IMG/VR virus record: IMGVR_UViG_3300010366_000062
Location: 1 to 25,342 of that record
Length of the DNA stretch: 25,342 bases
Origin: a virus
Lineage: Duplodnaviria; Caudoviricetes
Direction: 5' to 3' (one strand)
The position numbers and the translations under genes were made by a program. Below, piece after piece: positions 7,367 to 25,203 of the stretch; position 1 is the stretch's first letter, and each line of letters starts with the position of its first letter. Below the pieces are notes generated by a model that saw only the letters and a list, made by a program, of their open reading frames with translations, made no database searches and was not told the DNA's origin.

Positions 7367-8292
7367 CGATGGACCTGCGGCGCTCCACCCATCCGGACCT
7401 CCTGGACGAGCTCGAGCCATTTCTCCCCCCGCCCGAGCCGAGCCCGTCCGTCTCGAACGGCGCCCCCCCGCGTTCCCGTTCGAGGCGCAAGGTGGCGGAT
7501 ACTGTCCCGGACGCGTCCCCTCCCGGAGACACCGAGACGCCCGCTGCCACGGAGGGCGGCTCGGACGACGGCCCTCCTGCGTCCGAGCCCGCCGCTCCAG
7601 AAGCAGATGTGCCCGAATGGCTCGGCCAACTCCGCGCCGCGACCGACCCGGACGAAATCATCGGGCTGGTGACCAAAAACGTCGATCGCGACCTCTTGAT
7701 GAAAAACGAAATCCTGTCCGCCGTCCTCGGCAACATGAGCAACAAGCGCGCTCAGGACCTGTTGCGTCAACAAGACCAGCAGCGTCAGGAGCGCGACCGC
7801 CAGGCTGCTTATGAGCGCGGCGACCTGTACGCCCTGGGTCAGCTCACGGCGGCCGAGCTGCAGCAGCAGCGCGCGGCGCTCGAGGCGCAGACCCAGGCCA
7901 CGCTGAATCCGTACATGCAGGACGTGACGGAGTTTCAGCGCGCCCTGCCCGAAGACGTCCAGAAACGCGTCCAGGGCAAACAATACGACAGCTTCGGCGC
8001 CTATCTGCAGGCCGTCCACGAGGCACGCCTGCAGTACGACGTCGAGCAGGAAGTCAAAAAGCGCGAGCCCGCCTTGAAAAAGGCCGAGCTGTCGCAGAGC
8101 GTGGGTAGCGAGATGACCCCCGAGTTGGATGGCGGACCTGCACAGCAGTATCGCGAGATCACCGATGCTCAGGTCGCCAGCATGACGCTCGAGGAGTACG
8201 ACCGCTACTTCGACGACAAGGGCCGACCCAAACCGGGCGTGCGCGTCCGATTGGAGCGCGGCATCGACGTGCGTCGCGAACAGCGGCGGTGA
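7363..8292 (+). CDS. Putative capsid scaffolding protein, 309 aa
   Basis: Acidic/Pro-rich disordered N-terminus, helical coiled-coil middle, C-terminal ASMTLEEYDRY motif; directly upstream of the MCP. Confidence 0.65.
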   Translation: MTMDLRRSTHPDLLDELEPFLPPPEPSPSVSNGAPPRSRSRRKVADTVPDASPPGDTETPAATEGGSDDGPPASEPAAPEADVPEWLGQLRAATDPDEIIGLVTKNVDRDLLMKNEILSAVLGNMSNKRAQDLLRQQDQQRQERDRQAAYERGDLYALGQLTAAELQQQRAALEAQTQATLNPYMQDVTEFQRALPEDVQKRVQGKQYDSFGAYLQAVHEARLQYDVEQEVKKREPALKKAELSQSVGSEMTPELDGGPAQQYREITDAQVASMTLEEYDRYFDDKGRPKPGVRVRLERGIDVRREQRR

Positions 8293-8296
8293 TCTC

Positions 8297-8327
8297 CTCA
8301 CCCGACTAGGGTGAGACGCCGAAAGGA
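8297..8327 (+). promoter_or_regulatory. Stem-loop and RBS of the major capsid gene
   Basis: CTCACCC-gacta-GGGTGAG (8297-8315), then GAAAGGA (8321-8327) before GTG at 8337. Confidence 0.6.
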
Positions 8328-8336
8328 ATACAACCA

Positions 8337-8396
8337 GTGGCCACTGGTGCAACGGAGTTTGTCGACAAGACCATTGCCGACGGGATCTTCAGCCCT
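8337..8396 (+). CDS. Major capsid protein exon 1 (MATGATEFVDKTIADGIFSP)
   Basis: RBS plus GTG, 20 codons. The unspliced frame stops at 8406-8408. Joins in frame to exon 2 to give FSP-DIWSKQVL, matching the F.P(E/D).WS MCP N-terminal motif. Confidence 0.85.
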
Positions 8397-9051
8397 GAAA
8401 CGTTCTGAATTGGGGCTATAAAACCGACCTCAAATGCTGGGATACCCTAAAGTCTTCACACCTACTAAGGGAAAAGAGTGGAGAATACGTGGGCAATCAG
8501 CAGGGCAATTTCGGAGAGACTGATCTCGCATGGTTAGCAGGATTCATCGACGGTGAAGGGTCATTCGGATTTCAACGGCTTGTCGCGTCGCGAACGAATC
8601 GGCCGCACAAGCGCGCTTACTTCACCCCGCGAATCACTGTCGGCAACACGGACCGTCCAACGCTCACCTATGTGCTTGACCTTCTCGAGGCGTACCACCT
8701 CCCGCATCTGGTGTGGGACCGGCAGCGCCGCGGAATCAATCTCAATGGGCATGCGAAGGCAGACTTCTGGCAGGTTCGTGCGGAGGGTTTGAAGCGGTGT
8801 GCTCGATGGCTCCCGTTACTCTTGCCGTATCTGCGGACCAAGCGAGATCAAGCGAAGGTGATGTACGAGTTCTGCGAGTTCAGGCTCGCGATGCCAGGTC
8901 ACGACAAGCCGTACACGGCCCGCGAACTGGAAATACTCGACATGTTCCGCAACCGTCGCTTCGAAGCCCTCACAGACTACACGGTCGGCGGGGCTATTCA
9001 GGCCTCGATGGTATAGTCGGCCCCCCTTCGAAAGCTGGGGGAGCTCCTGCG
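8397..9051 (+). ncRNA. Group I self-splicing intron, 655 nt
   Basis: P1 AGCCCU(8391-96)/GGGGCU(8412-17) with U.G at the 5' splice site. P3 CCGACC(8424-29)/GGUCGG(8983-88). P AAAUGCUGGGA(8432-42), Q AAUCAGCAGG(8495-8504). P6 AGGGC/GCCCU. R UCACAGACUACACG(8970-83). P8 CGGGGC/GCCUCG. S AUGGUAUAGUC(9008-18). P9 CCCCC..GAAA..GGGGG. Terminal G at 9051. Confidence 0.93.
8489..9016 (+). CDS. Intron-encoded single-motif LAGLIDADG homing endonuclease, 175 aa
   Basis: DLAWLAGFIDGEGSF motif, LLPYLRTKRDQA C-terminal motif, GGAG RBS at 8480-83; codon usage differs from flanking genes. Confidence 0.92.
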   Translation: MGNQQGNFGETDLAWLAGFIDGEGSFGFQRLVASRTNRPHKRAYFTPRITVGNTDRPTLTYVLDLLEAYHLPHLVWDRQRRGINLNGHAKADFWQVRAEGLKRCARWLPLLLPYLRTKRDQAKVMYEFCEFRLAMPGHDKPYTARELEILDMFRNRRFEALTDYTVGGAIQASMV

Positions 9052-9843
9052 GATATCTGGAGCAAACAGGTTCTGCGCGCGACCGAGGCGAATCTGGTCT
9101 TCGCCAAATGTGTCAATCGCGGCTTCGAAGACGACGCCGCGGTCGGCAAGTCGGTCAAGGTCGCCAGCATCGGCAACGTCGCCGCGCGCGCGAAGGCCGA
9201 AAACACGGCCATCGTGTACGAGACGGTCGCCGAGACCGCCACGACCATCACGCTAAACATCTGGTCGTACGCCGCGGTCGGCATCGAAGACATCGTCAAA
9301 GTGCAGTCGATCGTCGACGTCCAGAACGAGTACCAGATGAAGATGGGCTACGCCATCGCCCGCGACATCGACTCGAAACTGGCCGCCGACGTGGCCGGCT
9401 TCACCCAGACCGTCGGCACGCTCGGCACCGCGCTGGCTGACGTGGACGTCATTCGCTCCAACCAGTATCTGGACGATGCCGACGCGCCCGCCGACGATCG
9501 CTTCTTCATCATGTCGCCGGCCGAGAAAGCCAGCAAGATCGGGCTGGATCGCTGGTCGAACGCGCTGTACATCGGCAACCCCAAGCCGGTCGTGACCGGC
9601 AGCCTGGGCGACATGTACGGCATGAACCTGTTCGTGACCACCAACCTGGTCAAGCCCGCAGGCGGCCAGGCCAACAACTTCGCTTTCCAGCGCGAAGCGC
9701 TCGCGCTGATCGTGCAGCGCTCGCCCAAATTGCACCTGTTCTACGACATCGACTTCTTCACCTGGAAGCTGGCCTCAGAGGTGATCTACGGCCACCAGAT
9801 GATGCGTCCCACCTTCGGCGTCTGGGCGAAAGGCGTCGGCTAA
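9052..9843 (+). CDS. Major capsid protein exon 2 (spliced product 283 aa, HK97-fold, P22-coat/N4-gp56-like)
   Basis: DIWSKQVL...GKSVKVASIG...MGYAIARDIDSKL...LDDADAPADDRFFIMSP...GDMYGMNLFVTTNL...AFQREALAL...IYG pattern typical of phage MCPs. Confidence 0.88.
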   Translation, partial: DIWSKQVLRATEANLVFAKCVNRGFEDDAAVGKSVKVASIGNVAARAKAENTAIVYETVAETATTITLNIWSYAAVGIEDIVKVQSIVDVQNEYQMKMGYAIARDIDSKLAADVAGFTQTVGTLGTALADVDVIRSNQYLDDADAPADDRFFIMSPAEKASKIGLDRWSNALYIGNPKPVVTGSLGDMYGMNLFVTTNLVKPAGGQANNFAFQREALALIVQRSPKLHLFYDIDFFTWKLASEVIYGHQMMRPTFGVWAKGVG

Positions 9844-19149: not shown

Positions 19150-19326
19150 TTATGAGGCCCAAGGGCTTCGAGAGCGATCAAGCGCCTTTGAGGCGATCTC
19201 GTCAGCCCAGCACATGACCTGATGCGAGCAGCGGTGTTTCTGTCGATAGTCCCGCAAATTGATCCGTAGCCGCTCGTTAGTCTGGGTCAACTCGGGCACA
19301 CATTGGCAGTGCTGATGCTCGCTCAA
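19150..19326 (-). CDS. Hypothetical protein, about 58 aa
   Basis: TTG start overlapping the stop of the HNH gene (TTGA); HCQC and CSH motifs. Confidence 0.45.
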   Translation of the reverse strand: MSEHQHCQCVPELTQTNERLRINLRDYRQKHRCSHQVMCWADEIASKALDRSRSPWAS

Positions 19327-19787
19327 TGTTTGCCCATCTTCGCGTGGCACTGTCTGCACAGCCACTCCACCTCCAAGGGTTTCGAGTAGTCAGGATGGTG
19401 GCCTTCAATGGTCACGCCAGTGATGCCACACGTCGAACACTCGTATGATGGCATGATCCGCCCTGAGCGCACGGCACGATTCAGAACGTTATGTGCCCGC
19501 GCCCGCTCAGGATGCGTCTCTCGCCAGTCGCGAATGACTCTCCGCCGATAGCCGGGATTGCGCTCATCGTAGTTATCGCGGGCCGCACGTACCCGGTCAG
19601 GATTGCTGGCACGCCAGGAGTCGTCCTGAGCTTTGCGGCGTGCCGGATCAGCAGTCTTGTACGCCTGAGTCGCTTTCAGGTGGCACGTCTTGCAGTGGCT
19701 ATTCAGCCCGTCAGTAGCGCGCCGGTCTGAGTAGAACTCAGTGGTCGGCTGGGATTCGTGACAGCGACTGCACGTCTTCAATGCCAT
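19323..19787 (-). CDS. Zinc-finger HNH-like endonuclease, 154 aa
   Basis: AAGGAG RBS; KTCSRC...EFY...DGLNSHCKTC N-terminal Zn finger; CSTCG...GHHPDYSKPLEVEWLCRQCH C-terminal motif. Confidence 0.8.
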   Translation of the reverse strand: MALKTCSRCHESQPTTEFYSDRRATDGLNSHCKTCHLKATQAYKTADPARRKAQDDSWRASNPDRVRAARDNYDERNPGYRRRVIRDWRETHPERARAHNVLNRAVRSGRIMPSYECSTCGITGVTIEGHHPDYSKPLEVEWLCRQCHAKMGKH

Positions 19788-22278: not shown

Positions 22279-22307
22279 ACTATACTTGATATGCGACATG
22301 CATGCAA
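22279..22307 (-). promoter_or_regulatory. Sigma70-type leftward promoter
   Basis: Minus strand TTGCAT-17 nt-TATAGT, 9 nt upstream of ATG 22269. Confidence 0.65.
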
Positions 22308-22382
22308 CATATCTGCTACACTGTCGGCATGCTGATTCAAGATTGTGACGCCACTCTGGCAGTACACTCGCCTATCGTGACA

Positions 22383-22577
22383 ATGGTGCCGCCCCTGGTC
22401 CATCTGCGCGACCTGCGCCTGCGCCGCGCGCTGACGCAGGTGGATCTGGCCACCCTCTCAGGTGTCTCGCGCGCGACCATCATTCGCCTGGAGGCCGGCG
22501 AGCGCAACGTCCAGCCGCCCACCTTGCGCAAACTCGCCAGGGCACTCCGCGTCAAGGTTGCGGAGTTGATGGCGTGA
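22383..22577 (+). CDS. XRE-family HTH regulator, 64 aa
   Basis: LRDLRLRRALTQVDLATLSGVSRATIIRLEAG...TLRKLARAL. Confidence 0.9.
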   Translation: MVPPLVHLRDLRLRRALTQVDLATLSGVSRATIIRLEAGERNVQPPTLRKLARALRVKVAELMA

Positions 22578-22780
22578 CGCTGGCTGATGCACCGCTCGAG
22601 CCGCGTTTGCGCGGCATCGAAGATCGCCTGCTGGTGATCGAGACGCGTCTCAGTTACCTGGCCACCAAGGCCGAGCTCGCCGACGTCAAAGCCGACGTCT
22701 TGCGCTGGTATGTCACCGGCTGGAGCAGCCTGGTGCTGCTGATTGTCGGCGCCACCGTCGTCAATCACTTCTGGAAGTGA
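22574..22780 (+). CDS. Coiled-coil plus C-terminal TM protein (DUF1640/CCDC90-like), 68 aa
   Basis: RLRGIEDRL..IETRL..LATKAELADVKADVLRW followed by a TM helix. Confidence 0.65.
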   Translation: MTLADAPLEPRLRGIEDRLLVIETRLSYLATKAELADVKADVLRWYVTGWSSLVLLIVGATVVNHFWK

Positions 22781-22784
22781 TGCG

Positions 22785-22883
22785 ATGAGTATTGACTGGG
22801 ACAGCGTGATCATCGGCTTCGGGCTGGGCGTGTTCTGTGGGCCGTGGCTTCACAAAGCCCTGCGCTGGTGGTTGTTCCGATGA
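22785..22883 (+). CDS. 32-aa membrane peptide (MSIDWDSVIIGFGLGVFCGPWLHKALRWWLFR); not in the ORF track
   Basis: Fills the gap exactly and is ATGA-coupled to the integrase start. Confidence 0.55.
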   Translation: MSIDWDSVIIGFGLGVFCGPWLHKALRWWLFR

Positions 22884-24007
22884 GCCGCCGCGGCAATGGC
22901 GAGGGCAGCATCTATTCGCGCGTGCGGCGCCACACGCGCAAGGACGGCATGCTCGTCGAAAAGACCGTCTGGTGCGCCGCGGTGTCGCTCGAGTACGGCG
23001 AGCGCAAGGTCATCTACGGCAGTACGCGCGAGGAGGTCGCATCTGAGCTCGTCCGCCTGCTCGGCGCGCGCCAGTCCGGGCTGCCGGTGCCACGTGGACG
23101 ACTCAAGACCGGCGACTACCTCGAACAATGGCTGGAAGAGACGGTCAAACCGTCACGCAAGCCGCTGACCTACGTCCGTTACGAGAACATCACGCGTCGC
23201 CACCTGATCCCGACGCTGGGCAAAATCCCACTGGCCAAACTCGGGCCTGGCGATGTCCAGCGCATGCAGGCGCGCATTATCAGCAAGGGTCTTTCGCATG
23301 CCAGTGTGCTGGGTGCGCGCAACGTACTCAGCGCCGCACTCAGCCAGGCCGAGCGCTGGCAACTCATCGTGCGCAACCCGGTACCACTGGTTGCCGCGCC
23401 GCGCGGCGAGCCGTCCGAACCGCGCTGTTTGAGCCGCGCCGAAGGCGACGCGTTTCTGGCAGCCGCCCGCGGCGACGAGTACGAGTACCTCTTCGCGACC
23501 ATGCTGGCGACCGGGCTGCGGCCGGGCGAGGCGCGTGGGCTGGCCTGGACCGCGGTGCACCTGGATCGCGGGGTGCTCGAGGTCCGCCAGCAGTCGATCG
23601 ACATGAACCGCGAGCTGGCCGCCCCGAAATCGCGCCATGGACGTCGCTGGGTGCCGCTCATGCCTCTGGCGGCCTGGGCCCTCGAGCAGCAGCGCGCGCG
23701 GCCTGTGCGTGCGCTGAGTGGCCTGTGCTTCGCGGCCGAGGATGGCTTGCCACCGGCGGCACGCACCATCCGCGACCACTTCGACGCGATCTGTCTGAGG
23801 GCCGGCATTGTGGGCGCCACCCCGCACACGCTGCGGCATTCGGCCGGCACCTACCTGCTGGGCGCGGGCGTGCCGGATCGGGTGGTGCAGGACATCCTGG
23901 GCCACGGCTCGGCGGTGATGACACGGCACTACCAGCATGTCACGCCGGACATGCTGACCGAGGCCGGCGCGCGCCTGGCGGCCTACTGGACGGCCACTGC
24001 GCACTGA
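22880..24007 (+). CDS. int: Tyrosine integrase, 375 aa (start ATG 22880)
   Basis: MSRRGNGEGSIY N-terminus; catalytic TGLRPGE (R), PKS (K), HTLRH, LGH and RHYQH (Y). Confidence 0.95.
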   Translation: MSRRGNGEGSIYSRVRRHTRKDGMLVEKTVWCAAVSLEYGERKVIYGSTREEVASELVRLLGARQSGLPVPRGRLKTGDYLEQWLEETVKPSRKPLTYVRYENITRRHLIPTLGKIPLAKLGPGDVQRMQARIISKGLSHASVLGARNVLSAALSQAERWQLIVRNPVPLVAAPRGEPSEPRCLSRAEGDAFLAAARGDEYEYLFATMLATGLRPGEARGLAWTAVHLDRGVLEVRQQSIDMNRELAAPKSRHGRRWVPLMPLAAWALEQQRARPVRALSGLCFAAEDGLPPAARTIRDHFDAICLRAGIVGATPHTLRHSAGTYLLGAGVPDRVVQDILGHGSAVMTRHYQHVTPDMLTEAGARLAAYWTATAH

Positions 24008-24010
24008 GGC

Positions 24011-24197
24011 GTTGCTGTCCGGGTTGCTGCCAGAAGGTCGAAAATGAGTGATTTTGAACTCAGAACGAGGCCGTTCGCATTTCTGTGCCAGTTCTGTTTT
24101 TTGGCCTTGGAAACCCTCATTTTGAGTTCAAAATTGGCTCAGCAAGGGTCCCGAAATGTCCGTGTGTAGCAGCGCGTTGCTACACACTTTGCTACAC
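24011..24197. other. Putative attP region with arm- and core-type repeats
   Basis: AT-rich gap after int. GTTGCTG x2 (24011, 24023); 20-bp imperfect inverted repeat 24051-70/24115-34; GTGTGTAGCA/TGCTACACAC inverted repeat 24162-87; TTGCTACAC x2 (24177, 24189). Confidence 0.65.
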
Positions 24198-24536
24198 CGG
24201 ACGGCTCGGATAGATGTGGATGGTCTGCTGCAGCACCCACAGGTTGACCACCATCGGCGGTTCGAACGCGCCACTGCCGAAGACGGGCACGGGGTTGAGC
24301 AGCTCGCCAGGCAGGACGTGGAAGTGCGCCGCGACCTGGATCAACTGATTCAGCGACGGCTCGTGCGTGTGCTCTTCCCAGCGGGCAATGGTGCCGATGG
24401 GCAGCCCGAGCGCGTCGTTAAGTTGCACCTGGGTCAGGCTGTCGCGCTGGCGCAGACGCTTCAGGTTGGCGGCGAACGTCAGGTTGCGCGAGCCAGCCGA
24501 GCGGCGGCCACGTCGGCGAGTGCTGTCATTGGTCAT
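24192..24536 (-). CDS. XRE-family HTH repressor (CI-like), 114 aa
   Basis: FAANLKRLRQRDSLTQVQL..ALGL...TIARWE...EPSLNQLIQVAAHF; divergent from the RHH/xis genes. Confidence 0.85.
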   Translation of the reverse strand: MTNDSTRRRGRRSAGSRNLTFAANLKRLRQRDSLTQVQLNDALGLPIGTIARWEEHTHEPSLNQLIQVAAHFHVLPGELLNPVPVFGSGAFEPPMVVNLWVLQQTIHIYPSRPV

Positions 24537-24602
24537 GCATGCCCCGGCCTTCCCAGTGTCACAAAACGCCGCTATCGAAACGATATCACGCCGCGCTCAG
24601 GC

Positions 24603-24754
24603 TGGGTCAGACAGGGTCAGGCGAGTCGCCGGAGGGTACCGGGGATTTTACGTGGCGTTTACGTGGCGTTGACGCTGACCGGGACGCGATTTAGCGTTTA
24701 GTTTCAAGGTTTTCCCGAATTCTGGTAGACGGCCTACTAGAATATGCGTTCTAG
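24603..24754. promoter_or_regulatory. Divergent control region with operator-like repeats
   Basis: GGGTCAG x2; TTTACGTGGCG x2 (24647-68) plus TTGACG; overlapping inverted repeats around TAGAAT (24721-24754). Confidence 0.5.
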
Positions 24755-24767
24755 GAGGAAGGGGCAA

Positions 24768-24953
24768 GTGGCACTCCACGACTCGAGCGTCATGCTCACC
24801 CGAAGCGTGACGGCGATGGTCAGCGAGCAGCAGGGACGGCTGCTCGACCAGGTCGCCGAGCAGCGTCAGATCAGCCTGAGCGCCGTGGTGCGCGACGCCA
24901 TCCGCGAGTATCTCAGCCGGGCCGCGCTGCCGCGCGCCAAAGCCGCGCAATGA
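24768..24953 (+). CDS. Ribbon-helix-helix (CopG-like) DNA-binding protein
   Basis: GGAGG RBS before GTG 24768; RSVTAMVSE....LLDQVAEQRQISLSAVVRDAIREYL. Confidence 0.75.
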   Translation: MALHDSSVMLTRSVTAMVSEQQGRLLDQVAEQRQISLSAVVRDAIREYLSRAALPRAKAAQ

Positions 24954-24954
24954 C

Positions 24955-25203
24955 ATGGACTCTCTCAACAGGAACACCAGAGAAACTGCCGAGCTGCTGG
25001 GCGTCAGCGAAGCGACGGTCAAGCGGCTGATCCGCCGCGGCGAGTTGTTGTCGATCAACATCGGGGGTCGCCGGCTGGTGCCCCAGACCGCGATTGACGA
25101 GTACCAGGCCAGCCTGGTCAACGACGCACGCGAAGAGCACGATGCGCACCTCGAGCAGCAGCAGCGCATCAACCAGTTCACCCGCAAGCGGCGGCCGGCA
25201 TGA
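24955..25203 (+). CDS. xis: Excisionase-like HTH (MerR-type/HTH_17) protein, 82 aa
   Basis: TRETAELLGVSEATVKRLIRRGELLSINIGGRRLVPQTAIDEY. Confidence 0.85.
   Translation: MDSLNRNTRETAELLGVSEATVKRLIRRGELLSINIGGRRLVPQTAIDEYQASLVNDAREEHDAHLEQQQRINQFTRKRRPA

Follow-up and report, generated by a model that had tools for sequence, protein, structure and literature searches.

A LAGLIDADG endonuclease gene that starts and stops within the core of a group I intron in a phage capsid gene

In the phage sequence studied here, the insert that splits the major capsid gene (8397-9051) carries the hallmarks of a group I ribozyme, putatively self-splicing, and the homing endonuclease gene inside it both starts and stops within helices of the ribozyme core (Table 1). 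The whole stretch analysed, hereafter the window, is a viral record of 25,342 bases, 65% complete according to CheckV. We delimited the intron and its helices, placed the start and stop of the gene, assigned the fold of its product and found the same layout many times over in introns of phages and bacteria, the present locus being only one of them. This locus is a variant of the known core-creep layout, in which loss of the stop or initiation at an alternative codon carries the ends of an ORF into core helices (Edgell, Chalamcharla and Belfort 2011, PMC3073962). The initial annotation had drawn it correctly, and the comparative support for the 5′ overlap is the new part. The explanation that we favor, and consider probable, is that the gene borrowed the start and the stop of the ribozyme, with low-level synthesis of the endonuclease from molecules in which the P4-P5 domain is open. 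Rather than a dedicated switch, the layout is probably a side effect that holds endonuclease expression low. Behind this explanation we rank, in this order, a dedicated switch, an internal promoter and entry of ribosomes from upstream.

Table 1. Features of the capsid-gene intron and of the endonuclease gene, in window positions.
Feature	Position	Strand	Remarks
Major capsid gene, exon 1	8337..8396	+	GTG start, ends ...TTC AGC CCT
P1	8391..8417	+	8391-96 with guide 8412-17; U8396.G8412 at 5′ splice site; invariant 8/8
Group I intron	8397..9051	+	655 nt, terminal G 9051; no P2, no P7.1/P7.2 seen; extended P5
In-frame stop TGA	8406-08	+	within P1 region
P10	8409-11 with 9052-54	+	one pair covaries
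5′ strands of P3, P4, P5	P3 8424-29, P4 8435-39, P5 8445-47	+	
TAAAGT, TAnnnT hexamer at J5/5a	8448..8453	+	weak candidate -10 box
P5a domain	8453..8484	+	stem 8453-59/8478-84, inner hairpin 8461-70, A-rich 8471-77, GGAG 8480-83 in 3′ arm
Single-motif LAGLIDADG endonuclease ORF	8489..9016	+	175 aa, GTG to TAG
5′ overlap, codons 1-9	8489..8515	+	P5 3′ strand, J5/4, P4 3′, P6 5′, P6a 5′
P5 3′ strand	8491-93	+	then J5/4
P4 3′ strand	8498-8502	+	
P6	8503-06/8966-69	+	
P6a 5′ strand	8510-14	+	
Loop L6	8516..8956	+	encodes residues 10-156, folded nuclease domain
3′ overlap, last 19 codons and stop	8957..9016	+	P6a/P6 3′, J6/7, P7 5′, P3 3′, P8, J8/7, P7 3′
P7	8973,8975-79/9014-19	+	
P3	8424-29/8983-88	+	
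P8	8989-94/9002-07	+	
P9.0, P9 with C(GAAA)G loop, terminal G	9020..9051	+	
Major capsid gene, exon 2	9052..9843	+	begins GAT ATC TGG; Pfam Phage_capsid_2 E 1.2e-8; phrog_267 major head protein E 7e-32

Joining the two exons yields ...GIFSP/DIWSKQ (the slash marks the junction), and 76 of the best 80 related capsid loci (of 238) have this site uninterrupted, reading F(S/N)P followed by D(I/V)W; three of the 80 carry an intron there and one is truncated. Protein and DNA-pattern searches for further introns at this site yielded 85 pattern matches; a filter for the P and Q elements retained 18, and these collapsed to eight distinct same-site introns, the window's own included. The exon motif AGCCCT (8391-8396) precedes all eight of them and none of 64 intronless alleles, only three of which end in T, as co-conversion or the needs of P1 would lead one to expect. 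In a small share of an RNA sample, searched as assembled contigs only and from a library that may contain DNA, a 252-nt contig covered 8454-8705 with 29 differences; the intronless-type junction was present among these contigs and the spliced junction was absent, which weighs neither for nor against splicing. The phage is probably temperate, given the integrase, HTH regulators, amidase and tail-fibre-like genes in the window. The tyrosine integrase (22844-24007) has HTH regulators and an excisionase-like HTH_17 ORF on its flanks in a temperate module (22302-25203), and a free-standing ORF on the minus strand (19323-19787) matches the phrog_2340 endonuclease (E 8e-34) and HNH families.

The splice sites have the expected group I hallmarks, namely a U.G pair at the 5′ splice site in P1, a terminal G and restoration of the host frame upon removal, and between them lies a P3-P9 core with the G-binding site in P7 and the R and S elements. 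A hand-built structure of 62 pairs is paired in 99.2% of 496 cells across the eight same-site introns, compared with 30-52% in slid controls, and in 13 of the 62 pairs both partners change (in P3, P5a, P6, P6a, P8, P9.0 and P10), a number reached in none of 500 shuffles; both the derivation of the structure from the window itself and the relatedness of the eight sequences favor it in this comparison. P4 and P7 are invariant among the eight and therefore uninformative for covariation. In P10, the pair 8409/9054 covaries with the wobble base of the codon that opens exon 2, A accompanying GAT and G accompanying GAC in 8/8. Rfam returned no group I match on the window or on 8300-9120, the core being split by an insert of 440 nt. 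By inspection, the intron may be IB4-like (compare the L1917/L1931 rRNA introns), a subgroup with neither P2 nor P7.1/P7.2 and with an extended P5.

The ORF product is predicted to be an I-CreI-like single-motif LAGLIDADG homing endonuclease, on the basis of a motif helix with an acidic end and an alpha-beta fold. A phmmer search found I-MsoI (E 1.4e-6), and the AlphaFold model (pLDDT 86; helices from H10-23 to H144-156) has I-MsoI, I-CvuI and I-CreI as its best Foldseek matches, with E from 9e-8. The motif reads LAGFIDGEG, and D21, E23, G24 and K118 are invariant in 38 sequences. These three homodimers (PDB) share fold and motif with the capsid-intron product but differ from it in sequence, with 17-26% identity; they come from algal organellar rRNA introns. 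Pfam gave no match for the ORF at E<=0.01, and some homologs carry PF00961 or PF14528. In PHROGs, residues 10-146 match phrog_5046 (E 2e-17), a family labelled 'HNH endonuclease', a label that Caulobacter phage homologs bear as well. Among cultured phages, eight records hold homologs of the ORF, all below 31% identity, and in the two inspected the annotation shows an ordinary gene among its neighbours and lists no intron. Across the eight same-site introns, 64 of 148 codons in L6 vary only synonymously, which indicates that the ORF behaves as a gene under selection.

The predicted target can be read from the intronless alleles, whose junction, CCN/GAY ATY TGG with the slash at the insertion site, is a pseudo-palindrome. 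In 64 unique intronless alleles, the centre between +3 and +4 comes second in symmetry among 790 centres when arms 1-6 are compared and tenth when arms 3-7 are. I-CreI cuts just 3′ of its insertion site, and the predicted centre, also just 3′ of the insertion site, has a similar geometry. A homodimer would cut intronless capsid genes at this sequence.

The initial annotation held that the ORF is not confined to a loop, and its passage through P4, P6, P7, P3 and P8 is confirmed at every coordinate. The GTG at 8489 is also where it had been placed, at the 3′ strand of P5, although it does more than abut that strand, since G8491 pairs in P5 and the two overlap. We looked for the alternative of a start inside L6 and found none: GTG 8489 is the sole ATG, GTG or TTG between the upstream in-frame stop and the LAGLIDADG helix, and CTG 8405 is the only other candidate start in the ORF frame. 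A start-like codon occupies this position in 8/8 same-site introns (GTG in five, TTG in two, ATG in one), which is weak evidence by itself because the P5 strand carries such a codon by default. This default was apparent in a scan for the P and Q elements, which gave at least 225 unique matches, 137 of them with recognisable R and S and 102 of these with a short L6. Among the matches listed, TTG or ATG stands at the P5 position in 72/102 short-L6 (ORF-less) introns and in 23/33 LAGLIDADG introns (p=1.0), whereas ATG alone is enriched with a LAGLIDADG ORF (16/33 versus 18/102, p=0.0009), and the P5 codon shares the frame of the ORF in 28 of the 33 LAGLIDADG introns, two of the 28 seeming to reach the motif only after R.

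A second scan was blind to frame and asked only for Q followed by the motif 18-48 nt later; it covered 121 of about 230 viral and 123 of about 1400 genome stretches, and when a P element 40-140 nt upstream was also required, 101 introns remained from 114 unique viral matches and 101 from 122 unique matches in genomes. The motif is in frame 0 with Q in 78/101 viral and 95/101 genome introns among the matches listed, and the viral gaps, listed over 18-48 nt, peak at multiples of three. Again among the matches listed, 69 of the 101 viral introns have no ATG, GTG or TTG between Q and helix 1, that is, downstream of P4; the nearest start lies in the P5 strand in 53 of them and further up in 16, and nine of the 53 use another frame that reads Q as I-S-R. 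The pattern holds on representatives at 60% identity (60/86 of those listed). The compared introns are related, and the p-values overstate their independence; the frame label itself changes at least five times on well-supported branches of a quick tree, a tree that is poorly resolved, with 14 of 108 branches starred. A homolog of the capsid protein is detectable beside only 8/101 viral introns among those listed. The N-termini MGNQQ and MDNPQ in annotated phage proteins are read-outs of the intron Q element and give a rapid way to spot introns such as those that escaped Rfam here. In another frame, a 19-codon ORF (8478-8537) begins at GTG 8478, 6 nt after UAAGGG, and overlaps the endonuclease start; this GTG is found in 6/8 same-site introns and may be simply the top pair of P5a.

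At the other end, the TAG at 9014-16 does lie in the P7 3′ strand, as first proposed. The accompanying idea of dual coding stands as an overlap at both ends and not as a two-way constraint, because helix-preserving changes alter residues and two of the eight introns stop earlier. In detail, compensatory changes in P3, P6, P6a and P8 exchange V/P/L, G/E/R, G/R and F/L, and six same-site introns stop at the UAG of S while the other two stop five codons before it, in L8. More widely, 39 of 40 viral representatives with visible ends, among the matches listed, run into or past the core, with stops at the UAG of S in 10, beyond it in 12, earlier in the core in 17 and before the core in one, and homologs end in all three frames of R. 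RNA structure seems to dominate at the overlaps, and the protein tails look like passengers.

A GGAG ribosome-binding site in the stem 8453-59/8478-84 had been described as well, with the stem as a regulatory device. The stem is present in the MFE fold, and GGAG 8480-83 lies wholly in its paired 3′ arm, 5 nt before the GTG. Such an arrangement would suit a dedicated switch, in which P5a was selected to hide the Shine-Dalgarno (SD) sequence and made endonuclease translation and capsid mRNA splicing coupled alternatives, and removal of the hairpin in the T4 td intron does impair splicing (PMC2988022). We nevertheless find such a switch unlikely. As a conserved ribosome-binding site the GGAG fails, being present in one of the eight same-site introns, with GUGA only in five and no SD at 4-12 nt in two. 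The pairing of P5a is kept where the SD is not, four of its seven stem pairs changing freely on both sides, and the stem is an ordinary P5a also found in ORF-less introns. Its stability in isolation is unremarkable (-7 kcal/mol, z -0.16), and the predicted cost of exposing the start region, 12.7 kcal/mol, is similar to the 10.0-14.7 of seven other genes of the phage in a calculation of secondary structure only that ignores tertiary structure. The regulatory stem is therefore not upheld, and neither trait of a T4-type hairpin, a consensus SD about 8 nt before the start that is kept among relatives or a very stable dedicated hairpin, is found here.

The wider family gives a picture more favorable to the initial annotation. 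Among the matches listed for 60 representative phage introns, an SD precedes 42/98 in-frame P5-region starts and 6/90 other starts (p=5e-9); 40 of the 60 introns hold an SD at an in-frame P5-region start, and 19 of these 40 SDs are paired over 75% or more of their length in the MFE fold, as a switch would have it, whereas 21 are not mostly paired. An SD accompanies the P5 codon in 16/35 ORF-bearing and 7/72 ORF-less introns listed (p=7e-5), while within ATG-type introns the difference in SD strength among the matches listed (16/32 versus 5/18) is not significant (p=0.13). At the level of sequence, the family-wide enrichment shows that initiation inside the P5 domain has been selected for; selection for hiding the SD is not seen, although the pairing may have a regulatory use. 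The inner hairpin CCU-N4-AGG and the A-rich stretch after it (8461-8477) are kept in same-site introns, and the best SD-like match in most of them is UAAGGG or UAGGGA, but at 14-17 nt from the start.

Core creep with passive expression would proceed as follows. A nuclease domain in L6 that lacks a start of its own would take the start-like codon carried by default in the P5 3′ strand, and the ORF would then continue until a stop first appears in frame, which in this intron is the UAG of the conserved S element. P5a, P5 and P4 are local helices that would fold once transcribed, so that ribosomes would mostly be excluded and splicing of the capsid mRNA would win. The GUG or UUG start and the weak or absent SD would keep initiation low in the window's lineage, and other lineages would have gained stronger SDs in the P5 extension. 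Excised intron RNA, or unspliced and misfolded precursor, would be the source of the protein. In keeping with core creep, the 5′ and 3′ extensions vary in length and frame, and the overlap residues, predicted to be disordered or modelled with low confidence, may be dispensable, in view of the earlier stops in two of the eight introns and of the low pLDDT of the tails (below 50 for residues 1-4 and 173-175, means of 52 and 48 for the C-terminal blocks of residues 161-175, with the first helix beginning only at residue 10). The proposal that translation and splicing are mutually exclusive survives for one molecule at one moment, as a physical inference with the T4 td precedent, and not as a tuned switch that couples the endonuclease to capsid mRNA maturation; folding and translation would exclude each other as a consequence of the layout, through ribosome occupancy, since a ribosome could neither start on these helices nor pass them in a folded ribozyme.

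A separate transcript is another alternative, and a more doubtful one than the switch. An intron promoter with TAAAGT as its -10 box and a start near 8460 would yield an mRNA without the P5a 5′ arm and the 5′ strands of P3-P5, free of competition with splicing. TAnnnT is present at J5/5a in 8/8 same-site introns, a start at 8460 lowers the opening cost of SD and start from 9.0 to 3.7 kcal/mol, and the late transcript of I-TevI in T4 provides a precedent (PMC2988022). The hexamer, however, has neither a -35 nor an extended -10, and a scan of 8250-8560 for sigma70 promoters alone returned 0 sites. In addition, among the matches listed, TAnnnT at J5/5a is not enriched in ORF-bearing phage introns (14/86 versus 18/102) and the leaderless signature is absent from phage introns (4/134 versus 4/115).

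A further argument for such a promoter comes from bacterial introns of the same layout. The introns of the genome set are mostly in rRNA genes, with an rRNA motif in 66/101 of the matches listed and LSU rRNA assigned by Rfam to one locus (L456). They have no SD enrichment among the matches listed (15/109 versus 29/300), and TAnnnT lies 5-7 nt before the start in 44/126 in-frame ATG/GTG compared with 12/330 others, with a peak at 6 nt. Such a spacing is a mark of leaderless promoters. For ATG only, the listed counts are 27/79 in-frame and 6/107 other starts, 10/28 clusters and 0/4 short-L6 controls. Near-consensus -10 hexamers are not above shuffles among the matches listed (35/94; mean 26, max 38), but TGnTAnnnT is (28, against a maximum of 17). 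Loci L454-L575, such as L458, L464, L480 and L481, include bacterial 23S rRNA introns whose P5 extension holds an in-frame ATG preceded at 6-7 nt by TAnnnT, and several Patescibacteria introns have TGnTATAAT-like boxes, candidates for a leaderless internal promoter of the endonuclease. We give roughly even credence to the broader view that, across a large class of group I introns with I-CreI-like genes in L6, the P5 domain became an expression module for the endonuclease, contributing SD and start in phage mRNA introns and, in bacterial rRNA introns, a -10 box from which a leaderless mRNA without the 5′ half of the ribozyme would be made. If true, this would explain how endonucleases of rRNA introns are expressed and provide hundreds of natural tests of 5′ core creep.

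Entry from upstream (through an exon 1 frameshift, CTG 8405 or an intron circle), or a barely expressed ORF, is very improbable: the ORF frame is open from 8399 in the window and in L001-L003 but closed upstream in L025 and L083, no XXXYYYZ-type slippery site is visible by eye, and the synonymous-rich variation of L6 indicates a gene under selection. The exon 1 frameshift was rejected on the ground that the open frame is not conserved among same-site introns.

Several parts of this layout are in print in the sources available to us, including core overlap, 3′ read-through of P7/P3/P8 by a single-motif LAGLIDADG ORF, RBS sequestration and capsid-gene introns. According to the accessible text of the core-creep review (PMC3073962), extensions should vary in length and overlap residues should be non-essential, and the capsid-intron class matches on the first count and is compatible with the second. 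That text treats 5′ overlap in general terms only, with a warning of possible mis-annotation, and its Table 1 contains no P5/P4 overlap, whereas in the capsid-intron class frame, start and SD statistics back the 5′ overlap. The L1917 intron of Synechococcus sp. C9 (Haugen et al. 2007, PMC1995217) is similar in its single-motif LAGLIDADG ORF through P7, P3 and P8, its lack of P2 and its complex P5; its ORF, as described there, differs in starting in P6 and stopping in P9, and it resides in 23S rRNA and not in a phage capsid gene. In T4 td, as far as the consulted parts of PMC2988022 and PMC3073962 describe it, the I-TevI ORF likewise occupies L6 with its 3′ end in P6a/P7, its RBS lies in a hairpin and its translation harms splicing. 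Unlike the present case, the enzyme belongs to the GIY-YIG family, the overlap is of 20 nt at the 3′ end only, and the hairpin is a separate, very stable element of the P6 loop that has a late promoter as well as a consensus SD. Mycobacteriophage LittleE also has a LAGLIDADG-ORF intron in its major capsid gene, with an I-CreI-like gp14 that differs in being encoded on the opposite strand (Pope et al. 2013, PMC3706429, in the portion available). The comparison also took in further literature (PMC3984707, PMC11878797, PMC11270868, PMC13619312, PMC6125680, PMC11835236). Within the literature accessible to us, mostly without subscription papers, figures and supplements, there is no account of P5 starts as a class feature or of leaderless promoters in such introns; the structure figures of PMC1995217 and PMC6125680, which may mark ORF starts, lie outside this statement. 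The value of the locus is as an entry to a class with comparative support for the overlap of the 5′ end of an endonuclease gene with P5/P4, and the eight natural variants with and without SD make the question of translation versus splicing testable.

The same capsid gene has a second group I intron site, after codon 5, in nine of the 80 loci (the best 80 of 238), namely L044, L046, L048, L052, L057-L059, L062 and L063. Where its 5′ part is visible, this intron contains a 206-aa LAGLIDADG ORF with an MGNPQ start in P5 and AAGGA 7 nt upstream. Moreover, the viral contigs L229, L247, L249 and L306 carry several group I cores within 2-3 kb.
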